From a virus: a stretch of DNA of 37,689 nucleotides. The translations under genes were made by a program, and so were the position numbers. Of the stretch, positions 520 to 37,522 are shown one piece after another. A model generated the notes under the pieces. That model was not told the origin of the DNA. It ran no database searches and was given only the letters and a program-made list of their open reading frames with translations. Each line of letters starts with the position of its first letter. Within the stretch, counting starts at the first letter, position 1. Location: the IMG/VR virus record IMGVR_UViG_3300027719_000019, positions 1 through 37,689 of that record; one strand, given 5' to 3'.

Positions 520-1455
520 TCAATTACTTTCACAACCAACCCCGTCATGATTTCCATCGAAATTATGAGGGTCTGAACCTACGACCTGAAATCGGCGATA
601 GGGGATATCTTTGCAATCCAAGTCTGGTGGTGCCGGTGGTATGCAAACGGTTGGATAGGATGGATCGCAATTATTATTCGTGGCTGGTGCCTCCTTTGTG
701 GATATTGCCCTGGTAACCGGTGTTACTTCTTTTTGCAGTGCCCATAGGCCATACCCCATGGATGCCGCTCTTTGCTGACCATTCGCAAACAGATCCGCAC
801 AGGCTACGTCCGGGGGGTAGGTGGATGCATTGGCATACCCCAGGCGGACCAGTTCATAGTTGACCATTTTATTCCCCACAAGCACATAGCGGAGTAATCG
901 ACCGTATTGGTCCGTTTCAGACACGTCTTTGATCAGAATGACATCCTTATTCTCAACCAATGCGCGATTCTGGTCCGTTGCCTGCTCACCAAATTCTTCA
1001 TGCGTGGTGGTATCTTCCGGAGTGTCGATGCCGATATACCGGACGGTGAAATCCTGTCCACCGATATCAACGTGGATGGTATCCCCATCAACGATTCGAG
1101 TAACCTTTGCCGGTACGGACTGGGTATTGACAGGCAGGCATGGAAAAAGCTGATTGAGCGATGCTGTTTTAACTGCTGTTGGTACTGGCGGCGTTGGAGT
1201 ATCTGTTACTACAATTGGGGTTTGAGACAGGATTACCGCCAGTGTGCTGTGGTAGGTTGTCTCGTTGACGACCATTTTTATATCTGTCGGAGTTGTAATG
1301 CCACTCTGGGCAATTGGTAACTCAGTATTTGTGGGGGCCAAATCATCTGTATTTGAGGATAATAGGGCAGCTCCACCACCGCACATACATAACAATGCAA
1401 TGATGGCCAAACAACCTACTAAAATATTATTATTTTTTGACTTGGAATCAGACAT
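520..1455 (-). CDS. Membrane-anchored or secreted thermonuclease (SNase fold) with a C-terminal Excalibur Ca-binding domain
   Basis: The start is moved to ATG 1455 (AGGGGA upstream) because 1456..1509 lies in a repeated regulatory element. There is an N-terminal TM segment (ILVGCLAIIALLCMCGGGAALL). The SNase core reads VTRIVDGDTIHV...RYIGIDTPE...GRLLRYV...NYELVRLGYA. The C-terminus DCKDIPYRRFQVVGSDPHNFDGNHDGVGCE matches the Excalibur DxDxDGxxCE motif. Confidence 0.85.
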   Translation of the reverse strand: MSDSKSKNNNILVGCLAIIALLCMCGGGAALLSSNTDDLAPTNTELPIAQSGITTPTDIKMVVNETTYHSTLAVILSQTPIVVTDTPTPPVPTAVKTASLNQLFPCLPVNTQSVPAKVTRIVDGDTIHVDIGGQDFTVRYIGIDTPEDTTTHEEFGEQATDQNRALVENKDVILIKDVSETDQYGRLLRYVLVGNKMVNYELVRLGYANASTYPPDVACADLFANGQQRAASMGYGLWALQKEVTPVTRAISTKEAPATNNNCDPSYPTVCIPPAPPDLDCKDIPYRRFQVVGSDPHNFDGNHDGVGCESN

Positions 1456-1483
1456 AAAAAATCCCCTGAGTGCCGAAAAAATA

Positions 1484-1590
1484 GTAACACGTAACAGCAG
1501 TAACGGCATTTTGCATTAAATACCCATAGTACATAGTGTGGGGGTATTTAAAGGAATTATCTGTTACATCTGTTACCTGTTACAGAAATA
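1484..1590. promoter_or_regulatory. About 105-bp quasi-palindromic element, copy 1 (inverted copy at 13361..13475). It contains the upstream region of the nuclease gene.
   Basis: GTAACA x3 (1484-1506), stem TTAAATACCC (1516-1525) / GGGGGTATTTAA (1540-1551), then TGTTAC x3 (1561-1585). It aligns over its whole length with the reverse complement of 13361..13475. Confidence 0.65.
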
Positions 1591-14449: not shown

Positions 14450-14665
14450 ATGGCAGAAGAAATTATCAGATGCAAACGATGTGGAAACGAACTGGGCCGG
14501 GCCATAATTGTGGATAAAATCGAGCTGTTTGAATATGGTGGGTTGATATTGCGTGAAGCCCGCGGGCGCTGTAAAAATTGCGGGGAGCCGTTTTACTACT
14601 CGGTCTCTGACCGGGCGCTGGAACAGCTGCTGAAAACGATGGTAAATGTGGAGGTACATGAATGA
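14450..14665 (+). CDS. Small zinc-ribbon protein (CxxC-x29-CxxC). By position it is a candidate late-gene regulator.
   Basis: ATG 14450 lies 6 nt after TGAGG. It contains CKRCGNE...CKNCGEP and is the next-to-last gene before the late promoter. Confidence 0.55.
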   Translation: MAEEIIRCKRCGNELGRAIIVDKIELFEYGGLILREARGRCKNCGEPFYYSVSDRALEQLLKTMVNVEVHE

Positions 14666-14922
14666 ATGATAGCGATTATCTTCTCGCGCTTGAAAGTGCA
14701 AAGAAAATGGCGGTGCAGCATGGGAAAACAACCTATGTTTTTGACGATCAGAATATTGTTATCACAAATGGATTCAACGATGACGATAACATAAAAATGT
14801 TTGGAAAACTTGTTTTGATTGCCACTTGTTCTCCTGATGGGAACGTTGATCTGCGGGGGAAACTTGCAGAAATCAAGAAGCAGGGTGATGAAACAAATTA
14901 TGATCATAATTGTTTAGCATGA
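14662..14922 (+). CDS. Hypothetical protein (86 aa), last early gene
   Basis: ATGA-type overlap with a GGAGG SD. Confidence 0.55.
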   Translation: MNDSDYLLALESAKKMAVQHGKTTYVFDDQNIVITNGFNDDDNIKMFGKLVLIATCSPDGNVDLRGKLAEIKKQGDETNYDHNCLA

Positions 14923-14990
14923 ACGCTGTGCACCCCGTTCTTACCAGTCTGTTCCCGTAGAGTCTTAAGTGGGAACACCCTGACAGGGGT

Positions 14991-15034
14991 TGGTATAATA
15001 GAGTTAATCACATATTGGGATTCCGGAGTTTACC
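14991..15034 (+). promoter_or_regulatory. Late promoter A (extended -10 TGGTATAAT) plus a conserved leader box GGGATTCCGGAGTTTACCGCCC
   Basis: TGGTATAAT lies at 14991-14999. The 22-nt box (15017-15038) recurs at 20658-20679 with 3 mismatches. Confidence 0.6.
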
Positions 15035-15035
15035 G

Positions 15036-15080
15036 CCCGGCGTATAGCCAGAAATGGAATGCGCCGGGATTTTGTTTTTA
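15036..15080 (+). terminator. Promoter-proximal intrinsic terminator in the late leader (copy A)
   Basis: Stem CCCGGCG (15036-42) / CGCCGGG (15062-68), followed by ATTTTGTTTTTA. Confidence 0.6.
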
Positions 15081-15095
15081 ACGATAGAGGTATGA

Positions 15096-15668
15096 GTGGT
15101 AAGGCCAAAAGGGTTGACGAACAGGCAGCAGTTATTTATCGAATATTATCTTCAAAGCTGGAACGCCTGCGACGCGGCGCGGAAAGCGGGGTTCAGGCAC
15201 GCTGACAACCTGGGTGCCCGGCTGGTCAAAAATCCGGATATTAAAACGGCGATTGACGAGCGGATGAGATCCATCCAGATGCAGACGGATGAGGCACTGG
15301 TGCGCCTGACACAGATGGCGCGGGGCAACCTGGCAGATTTCATCACCATCGAGCAAATACCGCTGAACCGGCGCGGAAAACCAGTGCTGGATAGTGCCGG
15401 CAATCCAGTCATGGGGGAGACAGTCAAGGTCAATTTTCAGGCAGTCCGGGAGCGCGGGTATCTGATCAAATCGCTGACCTATGACCGCTCCGGGAATCCA
15501 AAACTGGAGATGTACGACGCCCAGGGCGCACTGGTCCAGATTGGCCGGGCGCATGGGCTGTTTACCGACCGGGTAGAGGACGTGAAAACCCCTCAGGTAG
15601 TTTTGTACATGCCGGATAACCAGCGGGATACCCCAAAACCTGAGTTACCAGGGGAGCCACATGAGTGA
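15096..15668 (+). CDS. terS: Terminase small subunit (Terminase_4 / P27-like)
   Basis: GTG lies 5 nt after AGAGG, with an in-frame TGA immediately upstream. The N-terminus LTNRQQLFIEYYLQSWNACDAARKAGF is the conserved HTH of this family. Confidence 0.85.
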   Translation: MVRPKGLTNRQQLFIEYYLQSWNACDAARKAGFRHADNLGARLVKNPDIKTAIDERMRSIQMQTDEALVRLTQMARGNLADFITIEQIPLNRRGKPVLDSAGNPVMGETVKVNFQAVRERGYLIKSLTYDRSGNPKLEMYDAQGALVQIGRAHGLFTDRVEDVKTPQVVLYMPDNQRDTPKPELPGEPHE

Positions 15669-19403: not shown

Positions 19404-19421
19404 CCCCCGGAAAACCGGGGG
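19404..19421. terminator. Bidirectional intrinsic terminator between convergent genes
   Basis: CCCCCGG aaaa CCGGGGG, flanked by an A-run on the left and a T-rich tract on the right. Confidence 0.75.
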
Positions 19422-19443: not shown

Positions 19444-19881
19444 TTATTTGATAACGCCTGTCCACTTTGCCGCGCCGTTGCGGATCAGATAGGAAACCAG
19501 TTCGCTCCATGAACCATTACCTTTGACAAACGCCGTTACCTCGTGCCATTTCCGGGCTGCATCCTGTACCATGATCTGAAACCCCCAGCGGCCATCGGGG
19601 AGCTGGCAGATGTTAAAATATTTGTTGTCTTTAGTGCGCCAAGTTTGGTACGCGCCGGTTTTGCACAACGTATCCCGGATTGCCTCGGCGTCTGTGCCGT
19701 GTCTAATCACAGCGTGTTCGTGCTGGATGACTCCGGGGAGCGCAGCAAACACTGCATTGAGTTCGCTTTGCATGGATATATCCCACGCGGCGGTTTGTGC
19801 GATTGGCAAAATTAACACCGCCACAGCCAGCAAAATCAATCCAACGAATGAAACTTTGATGGTCGCGATGGTGTTTGGCAT
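19444..19881 (-). CDS. Secreted or anchored protein of unknown function (145 aa)
   Basis: AGGAGG SD. The signal-like N-terminus IKVSFVGLILLAVAVLILPIAQTAA is followed by a 2-Cys globular domain. It lies on the strand opposite the surrounding late genes. Confidence 0.65.
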   Translation of the reverse strand: MPNTIATIKVSFVGLILLAVAVLILPIAQTAAWDISMQSELNAVFAALPGVIQHEHAVIRHGTDAEAIRDTLCKTGAYQTWRTKDNKYFNICQLPDGRWGFQIMVQDAARKWHEVTAFVKGNGSWSELVSYLIRNGAAKWTGVIK

Positions 19882-20088
19882 TTATTCCTCCTGTGCTAAA
19901 CTTTTGATCACAAAAATAAAATCTTCCATGGTCATCTGGTCGGTCGAACCGGCCACGGCCCGGAGCATATCGATGGTTTGTTCGTCCTTTGTACCGCAAA
20001 CCGCCTGTGTGTTTGCAGCATCCCGTGTCTCGTCAGTCACATGACCGACAAGAATCAAGTCCAAAAAAGCCTGCCATAAAATTTCCAT
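19882..20088 (-). CDS. Hypothetical acidic protein (68 aa)
   Basis: AGGAGTAACA SD. Its stop abuts the start of the next gene. Confidence 0.6.
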   Translation of the reverse strand: MEILWQAFLDLILVGHVTDETRDAANTQAVCGTKDEQTIDMLRAVAGSTDQMTMEDFIFVIKSLAQEE

Positions 20089-20473: not shown

Positions 20474-20502
20474 AAAAAAAAGGGCAGCCTGGGGAGCTGC
20501 CC
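20474..20502 (-). terminator. Strong minus-strand intrinsic terminator with no obvious upstream gene
   Basis: GGGCAGC (20482-88) / GCTGCCC (20496-502). On the minus strand the hairpin is followed by T8 (A8 at 20474-81). Confidence 0.65.
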
Positions 20503-20635
20503 GACCGACAAAGGAGATCTCAGGACAGAGACGCTGCTGAAACAAGAGACGAGATCAGTATAGCACGGGGGGCAAGGGAGGCTCAAGGGAATGAGATTAG
20601 GATCATAATTGGACACATCCCTTACAGCCCATGTT

Positions 20636-20679
20636 ATACTGAGTATATAACTGAATAGGGAATTTGGAGTTTACCGCCC
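20636..20679 (+). promoter_or_regulatory. Late promoter B (TATATAAC region overlapping an ATACTGAGTAT motif) plus the conserved leader box GGGAATTTGGAGTTTACCGCCC
   Basis: The box at 20658-20679 matches 15017-15038. A -10-like TATATA/TATAAC lies at 20644-20651. Confidence 0.55.
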
Positions 20680-20716
20680 AAGATGCACAGATGTGTGTCG
20701 GGCGGTTTTTGTTTTT
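20674..20716 (+). terminator. Promoter-proximal intrinsic terminator in the late leader (copy B)
   Basis: CCGCCC (20674-79) / GGGCGG (20700-05) with an extended inner stem, followed by TTTTTGTTTTT. Confidence 0.7.
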
Positions 20717-20737: not shown

Positions 20738-21118
20738 ATGAGTTGGTTATCGTTAGACGTTATCAAAACTGTTATTGGTCCGCAGATTGCCGCATTGATC
20801 GGTTTGATCGCTCTGCAGGTGCTGCTGGCCTGTGCGCTGGCGGTCCGCCAGAAGAAATTTGCCTGGAGAAAACTGGCAGATTTTTACCGTGTCATGGTCC
20901 TGCCGATGCTGATCGGCTGGCTGGGATTTGTTGTCCTTGCCCGGCTGGCGAGTGAGGCCATTCTGGGACCGGAGTACGGCATGTTGGCAGGGAATATGGT
21001 GAGCTGGTTAGCCTGGCTGGCAGTGGTCGCGAGTTTAGGCGGGCGGATTGTTGATACAGCCAAGGAATTATACGGCAGCCGGTTACCGTTCACTGCGGGC
21101 AGTGGAGATCCGAAATAA
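20738..21118 (+). CDS. Three-TM membrane protein, holin-like
   Basis: ATG 20738 follows GGAGGG. The three hydrophobic helices are IAALIGLIALQVLLACALAV, VMVLPMLIGWLGFVVLARLA and MVSWLAWLAVVASLGG, followed by a charged tail. Confidence 0.45.
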   Translation: MSWLSLDVIKTVIGPQIAALIGLIALQVLLACALAVRQKKFAWRKLADFYRVMVLPMLIGWLGFVVLARLASEAILGPEYGMLAGNMVSWLAWLAVVASLGGRIVDTAKELYGSRLPFTAGSGDPK

Positions 21119-22108: not shown

Positions 22109-23050
22109 ATGCCTTATGACAATGTAATCAACCGGACTGATGCAGCCGGTACCATCCCCGTAGAAACCTCGTTGGAACTGATTAACACGGTTGCCAACGA
22201 ATCCAGTCATGTGATGCGTCTCGGACGCCGGCTGCGGGATATGACCGTGTACGAAAATGATATGCCGGTGCTGAGTGCGCTGGCCACCGCTTACTTCCCG
22301 GATGGTGACACCGGTCTGGTACAGACCACGGAAACCAACTGGGAAAACGTCAAAGTTTATGCAAAAGACCTGGCGGTTTTAGTTCCCATCCCGAAGAACG
22401 TGCTCAACGATGCCCGGATTCCGATGTGGGACTCGGTCAAGCCGATTCTGGCGACCGCTGCCGGTAAAGCCATCGACAACGCGATTCTGTACGGCACCAA
22501 TAAACCGGCTGCCTGGCCGACCGCGATTGTCACCGCGTCTCTGGCCGCTGCTCACAACGTATCCATTGCCGGGTTCCCTGACCTGTATGACGCCATCCTT
22601 GGCGAATCGGGTGTGTTCTCGAAGGTTGAAGTGGACGGGTTTGGTGTGACCGGCGCGATTGGTGCCCTGACCATGAAGGGCAAACTGCGCGGATGCCGTG
22701 ACAGTGAAGGTCAGCCGATTTTCACCAAGGATCCGGCTGTTGCTGCCCAGTACAACCTGGACGGTTCACCGATCTACTTCCCGCTCAACGGAGCCGGTTC
22801 TGCCACCTACCCGCTGATCGTGGGTGACTGGTCGCAGTTGGTGTACGCCATGCGTCAGGATATGGAATTTGAAGTGTTCACTGAGGGCATCATTCAGGAT
22901 GCCGCGGGGAACATTCTCTACAACCTGCTCCAGCAACGGATGGCCGCGATCATGATGACCATGCGTCTCGGTTTCGCACTGCCGAACCCGATCAACTGGG
23001 TGAACAGCGACAGCGCTACCCGGTATCCGTTCGCTCATCTGACTGCCTAA
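22109..23050 (+). CDS. Major capsid protein (HK97 fold, no delta domain)
   Basis: 313 aa, following the scaffold. Its composition and size are typical of HK97-like capsid proteins. Confidence 0.8.
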   Translation: MPYDNVINRTDAAGTIPVETSLELINTVANESSHVMRLGRRLRDMTVYENDMPVLSALATAYFPDGDTGLVQTTETNWENVKVYAKDLAVLVPIPKNVLNDARIPMWDSVKPILATAAGKAIDNAILYGTNKPAAWPTAIVTASLAAAHNVSIAGFPDLYDAILGESGVFSKVEVDGFGVTGAIGALTMKGKLRGCRDSEGQPIFTKDPAVAAQYNLDGSPIYFPLNGAGSATYPLIVGDWSQLVYAMRQDMEFEVFTEGIIQDAAGNILYNLLQQRMAAIMMTMRLGFALPNPINWVNSDSATRYPFAHLTA

Positions 23051-36409: not shown

Positions 36410-37276
36410 TTATAGATGCCAGTTGTCCGCTGGTGATGAGCGCCGGTGCGCAGATTCAAGGTCTGATTGAGAAATCGCCAGGTATCTGCGCACCATCGTT
36501 AAATCGTTATGTCCCAGCAGCATTTGCAGTTCAAAAATGTTGCCGCCGTTGCGTAAAAACTCTATGGCAAACGTGTGGCGGAATCGGTGCGGGTGGATGT
36601 TTGTTATGCCAGCCCGTTTCCCGATGCGGCGCAGAATGTTGCGGAGTTGATACCGATCTAAGATTGTATTGTCGCGAGTGGAGATCAATGGATCTGTTGG
36701 GGTTACATCCCGGGTATGGATGTATTTCCAGAGTGCCAGGCGGGCGGATTTTCCTAAACGGGCAACCCGGCCACGGGATTTTTTTCCGGAGTGAAACGGT
36801 TTTACCAGGATAGATCCTGTTTCAATATCTAAATCATTGATCGTCAGACGGGATACTTCTGACACCCGCAGCCCTGAATCCAGCAGCAACAAGACAAGAG
36901 CCTTATCGCGTGCAGATTTGCACGATTTGACAATTTTACTGATTTCAGCCTGGGCGAACGGCAAAATTGCCTGATTTGGGGTTGCAGGCATTGGAATGTT
37001 ATCCACCCGTTCTATACTGAGTTCCTTACTGGCCCAGTTGAAAAATGATCGGATAACCTTCCAGTAGACCTGAACAGTGGATTCAGTTCGACCGTTATCC
37101 CTGAGCGATTGGAGGTAGCCGATCAGCTGTTCGCGGGTGATTTGTTCGAGGGGTGGATTGTCCAGCTGCACGGCAATATTTTGCAGACGCTGGGCATAAT
37201 ATTTTGCTGTTATGGGAGAATAGGCTCCGTTTGCCATTTCCATGGAAAAACCATCAATAGCATCTAAGAATTTCAT
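36410..37276 (-). CDS. int: Tyrosine recombinase / integrase (XerC/D-like, 288 aa)
   Basis: AAGGAG SD. There is a SAM-like N-domain. Catalytic motifs are LDSGLRVSE (R), HPHRFRHTFA (HxxR) and LLGHNDLTMVRRY (H..Y). Confidence 0.9.
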   Translation of the reverse strand: MKFLDAIDGFSMEMANGAYSPITAKYYAQRLQNIAVQLDNPPLEQITREQLIGYLQSLRDNGRTESTVQVYWKVIRSFFNWASKELSIERVDNIPMPATPNQAILPFAQAEISKIVKSCKSARDKALVLLLLDSGLRVSEVSRLTINDLDIETGSILVKPFHSGKKSRGRVARLGKSARLALWKYIHTRDVTPTDPLISTRDNTILDRYQLRNILRRIGKRAGITNIHPHRFRHTFAIEFLRNGGNIFELQMLLGHNDLTMVRRYLAISQSDLESAHRRSSPADNWHL

Positions 37277-37328: not shown

Positions 37329-37522
37329 TAAAAACTAAGAGTATTGTATTCTTTGTGGGCGGAACAGGACTCGAACCTGCGACCCCATCCTTGTAAGGGA
37401 TGTGCTCTAACCAGCTGAGCTACCCGCAGATAACGATCACATTACTCATAAAATATTGTAGGTATGTGCTTGTTTTGGTGGTTATCTTAAATAATCAAAT
37501 TTACGTGTATTGTGATTGTTTT
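37310..37522. other. attP region: AAAACAATCACA(T/A)T repeats flanking the tRNA-like core
   Basis: AAAACAATCACATT lies at 37310-37323 and its inverted copy (13/14 matches) at 37509-37522. A third ATCACATT lies at 37436-37443. Confidence 0.5.
37356..37429 (-). tRNA. tRNA-Val(UAC)-like sequence with an unpaired acceptor end, probably the attP core copied from a host tRNA-Val gene
   Basis: My cloverleaf on the minus strand has D arm GCTC/GAGC, anticodon arm CATCC-CTTACAA-GGATG, variable loop GGGTC and T arm GCAGG-TTCGAGT-CCTGT. The acceptor 3' strand TCCGCCC-A faces a 5' strand CTGCGGG, so pairs 1:72 and 2:71 are C:C and T:C mismatches. No CCA is encoded. Confidence 0.6.

Follow-up and report, generated by a model that had tools for sequence, protein, structure and literature searches.

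How can the late genes of a phage be expressed when a strong terminator stands directly behind their promoter? This question is raised by two leaders in a stretch of viral DNA of 37,689 nucleotides (nt) (IMG/VR record IMGVR_UViG_3300027719_000019, positions 1 to 37,689), the whole of which we call the window. Copy A lies ahead of terS, and copy B ahead of a holin-like gene that opens the second half of the late genes. The earlier note, made from the sequence alone, had read copy A as a promoter with a promoter-proximal terminator under antitermination control, and comparative evidence from about 40 leaders, in which a small RNA hairpin competes with the terminator, supports that view. We propose that each leader is a protein-controlled transcription attenuator gating one late operon, and that a zinc-ribbon protein (ZR), encoded upstream of copy A, holds this hairpin (P1) closed and thereby blocks the terminator. 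We consider the proposal probable, though by no means assured.

Anatomy of the two leaders

All coordinates that the earlier note had reported for leaders A (14991-15081) and B (20632-20716) were re-read from the sequence and verified. Both leaders consist of an extended -10 promoter, a 17-nt spacer, the box GGGAWTYYGGAGTTTACCGCCC, a strong hairpin and then TTTTGTTTTT, with precisely 17 nt between the -10 element and the box in each copy (Table 1). A degenerate form of the box matches twice in the window, compared with 0.00 matches in 100 shuffles, and no third leader copy was found in the window with a covariance model. The only match of the whole window to Rfam at the gathering threshold is a tRNA; permissive Rfam scans of both leaders returned noise only (E > 0.5).

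Both leaders form a terminator hairpin upon folding, at -24.2 kcal/mol (z -2.3) for leader A and -22.3 kcal/mol (z -3.0) for leader B. A simple terminator scan missed both for the sole reason that their loops exceed its 8-nt limit. In copy A, CCCGGCG (15036-42) pairs with CGCCGGG (15062-68) in a stem that extends to 10 base pairs (bp), and the T-tract ATTTTGTTTTTAAC occupies 15069-82. In copy B, the outer stem ACCGCCC / GGGCGGU (20673-79 / 20700-06) is followed directly on its 3' side by TTTTGTTTTTAAC. The box and the GC stem, which had been described as one element after the other, do lie at the positions first given for them. They are not separate elements, however, since the last six bases of the box (CCGCCC) are also the 5' foot of the terminator stem. 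A similar correction applies to the octamer GTATGAGT, which is common to both copies and had been placed around the start codon in each. It spans the ATG at 20738 in copy B as claimed, whereas its ATG in copy A (15092-15094) is out of frame with terS, and there the octamer seems to be a leftover of the duplication behind the two leaders rather than a functional start.

Two inverted repeats are found close to the promoters. The GTTCCC/GGGAAC repeat (CAGTCTGTTCCC at 14945-56 and GGGAACACCCTG at 14971-82) overlaps the -35 region of promoter A. Its arms are 14 nt apart and 83% complementary, so that the upstream hairpin of the earlier note exists; it is not conserved, being absent from copy B and from the relatives examined. 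This repeat may serve as an operator, mark the end of the early operon, or have arisen by chance. The other repeat, of 25 nt (20555-79 / 20618-42, 80% complementary), provides a minus-strand mirror of the copy-B promoter, TGCTATACT. Approximately 55 nt downstream of the mirror promoter, the minus strand carries a strong terminator without a box, GGGCAGC-N7-GCTGCCC followed by T8 (20502-20482). This minus-strand segment (20482-20579) might specify a small RNA of about 75 nt or constitute another promoter-proximal terminator ahead of minus-strand open reading frames (ORFs).

Relatives of the leaders in other phages

The DNA between 14400 and 15700 has no match in 50,697 GenBank phages or in E. 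coli genomes. A scan of IMG/VR for the 14-mer GGAGTTTACCGCCC returned 119 matches, most of which are chance occurrences inside coding sequence, and about two dozen display the full anatomy, by which we mean a TGnTAnAAT promoter, a AAUAGGGA-like motif, the box, a hairpin starting inside the box, and a U-tract. Among 99 matches in 185,579 species genomes, 14 are true copies; thirteen of these are in metagenome-assembled genomes (MAGs) of Anaerolineae / Chloroflexota and one is in Acidithiobacillus ferrivorans. After de-duplication, the leaders with the core GGAGUUUACCGCCC amount to 39 distinct copies from viral contigs, MAG prophages and assemblies. They come from otherwise unrelated phages and prophages, mostly of Chloroflexota, and the search of related phages that the earlier note had suggested thus finds the box conserved in some 40 leaders. 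The window phage itself is present with identical sequence in four other samples. Many genomes harbor two or three leader copies (L035, L052, L079, L092, L124, L237 and the window), with the second copies tending to fall between a MuF-like head gene and the capsid genes, as copy B does.

A TGnTAnnnT element is located upstream in 34 of the 39 copies. The distance from promoter to box ranges from 15 to 53 nt overall; counted to GGAG, it is 15-16 nt in three copies, 19-33 nt in 27 (mostly 22-28 nt, commonest 27), and 47-52 nt in four. Given this variable distance, the box appears not to be phased with the promoter. Hexamers resembling a -10 element are in modest, weak excess 20-22 nt upstream of the box, just upstream of AAUAGGGA; with an excess of this size, we do not claim a sigma70-dependent pause element. 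The AAUAGGGA-type motif is missing in the variant loci L236 and L122.

The box itself has natural variants: GGAUUUACCACCC (L230, 4321-4390), GGACUCCGCCC (L232, 4225-4320), AGGGUUUACCGCCU (L235, 7735-7825) and GGAGUUUAUCGCCC, the last in two loci (L236, 3785-3860, and L122, 9111-9180). These variants would be useful for the study of protein-RNA co-variation.

A covarying hairpin that competes with the terminator

The three positions that immediately precede GGAG can pair with those that follow GCCC in 38, 33 and 28 of the 39 copies, while the next position outward pairs in 12 only. Together with G1G2 and C13C14 of the core, the three variable pairs form the 5-bp helix P1, with AGUUUACCGC as its loop. 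In alignment A6, the P1 register has 90.5% of its cells paired, as opposed to 24-60% in slid registers, and 22 cells carry a double change, compared with 7.1 +/- 2.5 in shuffles (0 of 500 shuffles reach 22). The same P1 result was obtained on a 44-copy covariance-model alignment (A7), which is fitted to the model and favours structure. The pairs are of the types C-G, U-A, U-G, G-C and A-U; since the frequent U-G pairs are strand-specific, the covariation signal lies at the level of plus-strand RNA. In the L235 variant AGGGUUUACCGCCU, the G1-C14 pair is replaced by A1-U14, and the 3' arm of its terminator is altered to match. An alternative small hairpin, GG-AGUUUA-CC, is disfavoured by this variant, which keeps the 1-14 pair and not the 1-10 pair. 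In copy B, the arms UUUGG (20663-67) and CCAAG (20678-82) form all five pairs, one of them U-G.

Terminators could be folded for 38 of the 39 copies, and every one of them starts inside the box, its stem taking a median of five box bases and the next three. P1 shares C13, C14 and the three bases that follow with the terminator foot in all 38 (bases 15036-41 are common to P1 and terminator in copy A), so that the two structures are predicted to be mutually exclusive. The terminator has a median folding energy of -27.7 kcal/mol and P1 one of -5.0 kcal/mol, which is also the value for P1 of copy A; termination is the predicted default state. If P1 stays closed, what is left of the upper stem would end at least five to nine bases short of the U-tract. 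In copy B, A20680 and A20681 are paired in P1 and unpaired in an internal loop of the terminator. As these bases pair only in P1, the hairpin appears to be selected independently of the terminator. The idea that the box is a new protein-binding or RNA antiterminator element is strengthened by this covarying, competing hairpin. A complementarity of the box to 16S rRNA, of 7 nt only and judged by eye, is consistent with chance and was dropped.

A zinc-ribbon gene linked to the leaders

When 51 window proteins were compared by tblastn with the loci that carry the element, ZR was the sole broadly shared protein. A hidden Markov model of the ZR family detects a member at 20 of 31 true element loci and at none of 187 chance-match loci, all of them fetched by the sequence pattern. 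An automated count gave 16/27 versus 4/191 (Fisher p = 7e-14), and the four loci that seem to be exceptions turn out to be true elements overlooked by the filter. In the reverse test, all nine contigs fetched via the protein alone (L120, L122, L124, L226, L232, L235, L236, L237 and L238) carry a same-strand downstream leader. The most divergent protein (L232) accompanies the most divergent box, GGACUCCGCCC. Most element loci that have no ZR gene are fragmentary sequence or second copies within an operon.

Across phage types the ZR gene is found at the early/late junction, just ahead of the late (packaging) genes. It always closes the early/replication block, and the genes after it code for terminase, HNH or holin proteins of several unrelated kinds. 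It ends 20-61 nt before the box in 11 of 21 gene-bearing element loci and lies 0.4-4 kb upstream elsewhere. In the window this distance is 363 nt, and several far-spaced loci have inserted genes in between. On this comparison, ZR would be the one gene genetically coupled to the leader, in agreement with its earlier nomination as a candidate regulator. The other nominee, the gene at 14662-14922, is unlikely to be part of the system, having no homologue in any related locus. This 86-amino-acid ORF overlaps the stop codon of the ZR gene (ATGA), matches nothing in Pfam or PHROG, and is specific to the window phage. As far as sequence and comparison can establish them, leader anatomy, P1 covariation, the exclusivity of P1 and terminator, and the coupling of gene and leader form the ground on which we build.

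Two Anaerolineales MAGs contain canonical leaders (L176, 2932-2977; L132, 1588-1633) ahead of genes for a small membrane protein, an HNH protein and terS. On their other side these leaders border directly on two-component-system genes of host type, and the surrounding 5 kb contain no zinc-ribbon gene. They may belong to degraded prophages, or to satellites that borrow the activator of a helper phage.

ZR belongs to the Cys4 zinc ribbons. Its CxxC knuckles occupy residues 8-11 and 41-44, the second of them is followed by a conserved H/Y-W-S-x-S motif, and Arg35 and a C-terminal helix are further features. A word-index search with the single protein retrieved only ZR itself, and ZR alone as query found no relative in IMG/VR; a profile search then gave 53 clusters. 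All source-named members of these clusters are called "hypothetical protein" and none has a Pfam domain. At 50% identity the family comprises 530 representatives. No above-threshold match was obtained in Pfam or NCBIfam (ZR and 51 family members were scanned against Pfam), and the family profile has no significant match among all PDB sequences. In tblastn searches of GenBank phages with three family members, the only match was a chance one (E 0.07) inside a Thermus phage TerL gene, which suggests that the ZR family has no homologue in cultured phages. An AlphaFold2 model of ZR (predicted local distance difference test score 82.5) has six strands and a helix. Foldseek searches of PDB and BFVD with this model gave nothing at E < 0.03 and only uncharacterised proteins; weak matches below threshold are all to Mss4-like / beta-tent zinc folds (MsrB, Mis18/Yippee, the RIG-I C-terminal domain), and none is significant.

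Proposed mechanism and its alternatives

We propose that transcription of a late unit would begin with the firing of a constitutive-type extended -10 promoter, after which RNA polymerase would by default halt some 65-75 nt on, at the strong intrinsic terminator. The nascent RNA would first be able to form P1, in which three variable bases and GG pair with CC and three variable bases around the loop AGUUUACCGC, and the 3' arm and loop of P1 would use bases of the terminator foot. On its own, P1 (about -5 kcal/mol) would be weak against the terminator (about -20 to -40 kcal/mol). ZR, made at the end of the early operon, could bind P1 and its loop and keep the hairpin closed. With the terminator foot blocked, polymerase would continue into terS and the packaging genes (copy A) or into the lysis, capsid and tail genes (copy B). 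Antitermination itself we infer from the anatomy and the linkage; RNA binding by ZR, read-through caused by this binding, and a local, non-processive action are putative steps, and every functional statement made here draws on sequence, predicted structure and gene linkage.

Several observations weigh against this proposal. Transcription starts, termination and read-through are predicted from sequence only, and a hairpin-loaded processive mechanism would leave the same sequence signature. ZR is not strongly basic (the family has a median isoelectric point of 7.6, and the window protein a net charge of about -1 by hand count), and profile searches of PDB and structure searches detected no similarity to known RNA-binding folds. 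Only three of the five P1 pairs vary, and, as the collection was built on an exact 14-mer, ascertainment accounts for part of the constancy seen in the loop and in the two G-C pairs; only five variant boxes were seen. The AAUAGGGA motif is semi-conserved and yet has no role in the model. Finally, some element loci lack a ZR gene within 4-5 kb (L003 and L176; L032 is a within-operon copy).

A serious rival is RNA-loaded processive antitermination of the lambda N/nut kind, in which a boxB-like P1 would be bound by ZR, and ZR would move to the polymerase and make it resistant to this and later terminators. An N-type factor would fit the hairpin, the linkage and the presence of several copies in one genome, the conserved single-stranded motif upstream of the hairpin resembles a boxA/boxB layout, and the 10-nt loop, apparently the same across host phyla, could reflect contact with a conserved polymerase surface. 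We nevertheless favour local action because the terminator begins inside the box in every folded copy, an overlap that is needless for a processive factor and typical of alternative-structure attenuators. Local action is also favoured because each late unit has its own promoter and leader and the late operons are devoid of strong internal plus-strand terminators (none was found within the 20.7-36.4 kb operon). On balance, an N-like mechanism seems to us unlikely, if worth keeping in mind. It is likewise doubtful, though conceivable, that ZR and P1 represent an unrecognised class of RNA-loaded antiterminator whose target is RNA polymerase, for instance its RNA exit channel. The apparent sameness of the loop AGUUUACCGC in Chloroflexota and Proteobacteria phages would then reflect contact of the ribonucleoprotein with a universally conserved polymerase surface, and the module would offer a portable, host-independent antitermination part.

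The remaining explanations fare less well. Were ZR a DNA-loaded antiterminator of the lambda Q or AlpA type, it would bind double-stranded DNA in the promoter region and join a paused polymerase, and the box would be a DNA site or pause signal. The arrangement, from regulator through constitutive promoter and terminator to late genes, is that of lambda Q-PR'-tR', ZR has a weak single-sequence match to the lambda Q zinc ribbon (E = 0.36), and the -10-like hexamers upstream of the box could be read in the same sense. The Q match vanishes with the family profile, however, hhalign against lambda Q gives a probability of 0.5%, and the hexamer signal is weak; moreover, the box lies downstream of the start site at a variable distance, and its covariation with U-G pairs is a property of RNA. 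We give this explanation very little credence. The leader could instead be factor-independent, like put RNA, or be read by a host factor, with ZR a neighbour in another role, as the few element loci without a ZR gene in the available flank and the indirect case for RNA binding by ZR would allow. Against this stand the association of gene and leader from both directions (20/31 versus 0/187, and nine of nine protein-anchored contigs), across phages that share no other gene, and the pairing of a divergent protein with a divergent box. A self-acting antiterminator behind a constitutive promoter would furthermore leave the late genes unregulated, and we regard the explanation as improbable.

It is also imaginable that the short terminated transcript is itself the product, or that the hairpin is simply the terminator of the early operon; ZR might instead be a Com-like translational activator. 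A constitutive promoter with an immediate terminator would indeed yield an RNA of 65-75 nt, for which the regulatory small RNA StxS from Stx-phage PR', as presented in PMC7547250, is a precedent, and Mu Com, a small zinc-finger protein of a phage, is annotated as remodelling the hairpin of an mRNA. A small RNA would leave unexplained how the late genes are expressed downstream of two strong terminators, and a conserved single-stranded stretch that appears the same across host phyla argues against a host mRNA target. ZR has no homology to Com, and the ribosome-binding sites are 40-50 nt beyond P1 and do not overlap it. All of this makes such a role highly improbable, and attenuation controlled by ZR through P1 is the explanation we retain.

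Layout of the phage genome

At about 37.7 kb, the window amounts to the essentially complete genome of a temperate phage. A nuclease-like gene (520-1509, minus strand) is situated at its left end, and at its right end an integrase gene (36410-37276, minus strand) adjoins a tRNA gene (37356-37429, minus strand). The genes that flank the leaders are listed with the leader elements in Table 1. The scaffold, capsid and tail genes come after the holin-like gene, and the capsid gene (22109-23050) matches phrog_10. Two antisense ORFs of 145 and 68 amino acids (19444-20088, minus strand) lie between the late units. Both are also predicted by public gene callers, neither matches a PHROG, and the pair is bounded by a bidirectional hairpin (19404-19421); it resembles a moron, inserted after the MuF-like gene and ahead of copy B.

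Table 1. Leader elements and adjoining genes in the window
Feature	Position	Strand	Remarks
Zinc-ribbon gene (ZR), 71 amino acids	14450-14665	+	Proposed trans-acting antiterminator; last conserved gene of the early/replication block
Promoter A, extended -10 TGGTATAAT	14991-14999	+	Expected transcription start ~15006; sequence reading
Upstream motif, copy A, TATTGGGA	15013-15020	+	Semi-conserved, family consensus AAUAGGGA; column frequencies
Box, copy A, GGGATTCCGGAGTTTACCGCCC	15017-15038	+	Sequence reading
P1 A, candidate antiterminator hairpin	15022-15041; arms 15022-26 / 15037-41	+	4/5 pairs form; covariation
P1 A loop AGUUUACCGC; core box GGAGUUUACCGCCC	15027-36; 15025-38	+	Covariation
Intrinsic terminator A	15036-15081	+	Stem 15036-45 / 15059-68, small apical helix, then A + TTTTGTTTTT
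terS (Terminase_2)	15096-15668	+	First gene of late unit A; GTG start; ribosome-binding site AGAGG 15086-90
Promoter B, extended -10 TGTTATACT	20632-20640	+	Expected transcription start ~20647; sequence reading
Upstream motif, copy B, AATAGGGA	20654-20661	+	Sequence, column frequencies
Box, copy B, GGGAATTTGGAGTTTACCGCCC	20658-20679	+	Sequence reading
P1 B, candidate antiterminator hairpin	20663-20682; loop 20668-77; core box 20666-79	+	Covariation, folding
Intrinsic terminator B	20673-20716	+	Hairpin 20673-20706; U-tract 20707-16
Holin-like gene, 126 amino acids, hydrophobic	20738-21118	+	First gene of late unit B; ATG start

Significance

To our knowledge, the timing of late-gene expression has been worked out in mechanistic detail for few phage groups (lambda Q, P2 Ogr, Mu C, T4 and RinA/ArpU), and we know of almost no phage genetics in the Anaerolineae. 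Our analysis points to a compact two-part module in uncultivated temperate phages, including those of Anaerolineae, made up of a 70-amino-acid zinc-ribbon protein and an RNA element of about 45 nt. The regulatory logic of regulator gene, constitutive promoter, proximal terminator and late operon is known; the parts are new. The ZR family and the RNA motif are both absent from Pfam, NCBIfam, PDB and Rfam, and we found no literature description of the module or of the motif in a phage context. If the proposed mechanism is true, the known antitermination mechanisms would be joined by one with its own protein family and RNA motif, both new, and the module could serve as a marker of the early/late boundary in the annotation of metagenomic phage genomes. 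Synthetic biology would gain a very small orthogonal switch composed of promoter, attenuator and activator.

Comparison with known systems

The earlier note had likened the leaders to lambda PR'-tR' and to HK022 put, a likeness that holds as analogy and not as family membership. As in the lambda record, where Q precedes PR', qut and tR', the regulator gene closes the early block and immediately precedes a constitutive late promoter, a proximal intrinsic terminator and the late operon. ZR has 71 amino acids and Q 207, however, and the two share no sequence or profile similarity. The site here is a covarying RNA hairpin overlapping the terminator, whereas that of lambda is a DNA site within the promoter; the terminator is about 70 nt from the start instead of about 190 nt, and there are two or three leaders per genome instead of one. 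Homology to Q was rejected, as the profile gives no Q match at E <= 10 in a PDB set that includes the lambda Q entries 4mo1 and 7ubm, and there is no Pfam hit. The leader module is a functional analogue of lambda Q-PR'-tR', not a member of its family.

Lambda N/nut and HK022 put resemble the leaders in having a promoter-near hairpin in the nascent RNA that overcomes termination, in two copies per genome. Unlike the boxes described here, their sites are separate from the terminators and their action is processive. N is an arginine-rich peptide that needs host Nus factors, whereas ZR is a Cys4 zinc ribbon of near-neutral isoelectric point, and put is a two-stem-loop RNA that needs no protein, in contrast to a single short covarying hairpin with a tightly linked protein gene. 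Membership in either group was dismissed on these differences and on the lack of an Rfam match.

Small zinc-binding proteins are known from other phages. Mu Com, like ZR, is of about 60-70 amino acids with a CxxC...CxxC pattern; it binds mom mRNA and shifts a hairpin equilibrium, but activates translation and not transcription read-through. Homology to Com (Zn_ribbon_Com) was rejected with an hhalign probability of 7.5% over 15 columns for alignment A3. P2 Ogr and P4 Delta (about 70 amino acids) also switch on late genes, but Ogr activates initiation at late promoters via an upstream DNA dyad, and no terminator is involved. Membership in Ogr_Delta (PF04606) was rejected too, as 8 of 51 family members have sub-threshold matches only, with a best E of 0.014. 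AlpA of Pseudomonas aeruginosa and conAn of Gram-positive conjugative elements were recently described in PMC9371919 and PMC8191782 as small factors of mobile elements that let transcription pass an intrinsic terminator further downstream. AlpA differs from our proposal in being DNA-loaded, and conAn in acting processively with a protein and a long leader RNA. Among the PDB sequences, published AlpA complexes included, the family profile found no match.

The closest parallel in mode of action is provided by the Bgl/Sac antiterminators. BglG, SacY and LicT stabilise a weak antiterminator hairpin, the ribonucleic antiterminator (RAT, about 29 nt). The 5' arm of a much stronger terminator shares bases with the 3' part of this hairpin, and the three proteins act locally, at one site per terminator. 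The same overlap of antiterminator hairpin and terminator 5' arm is present in all 38 folded leaders. ZR differs in being a phage-encoded zinc ribbon, with no CAT_RBD or PRD hit in the Pfam scans of ZR and 51 family members, and P1 has a 5-bp stem and a 10-nt loop in place of the longer RAT. By analogy, ZR and P1 most likely work as BglG, SacY and LicT do on the RAT, placed in the regulatory position that Q occupies in lambda.

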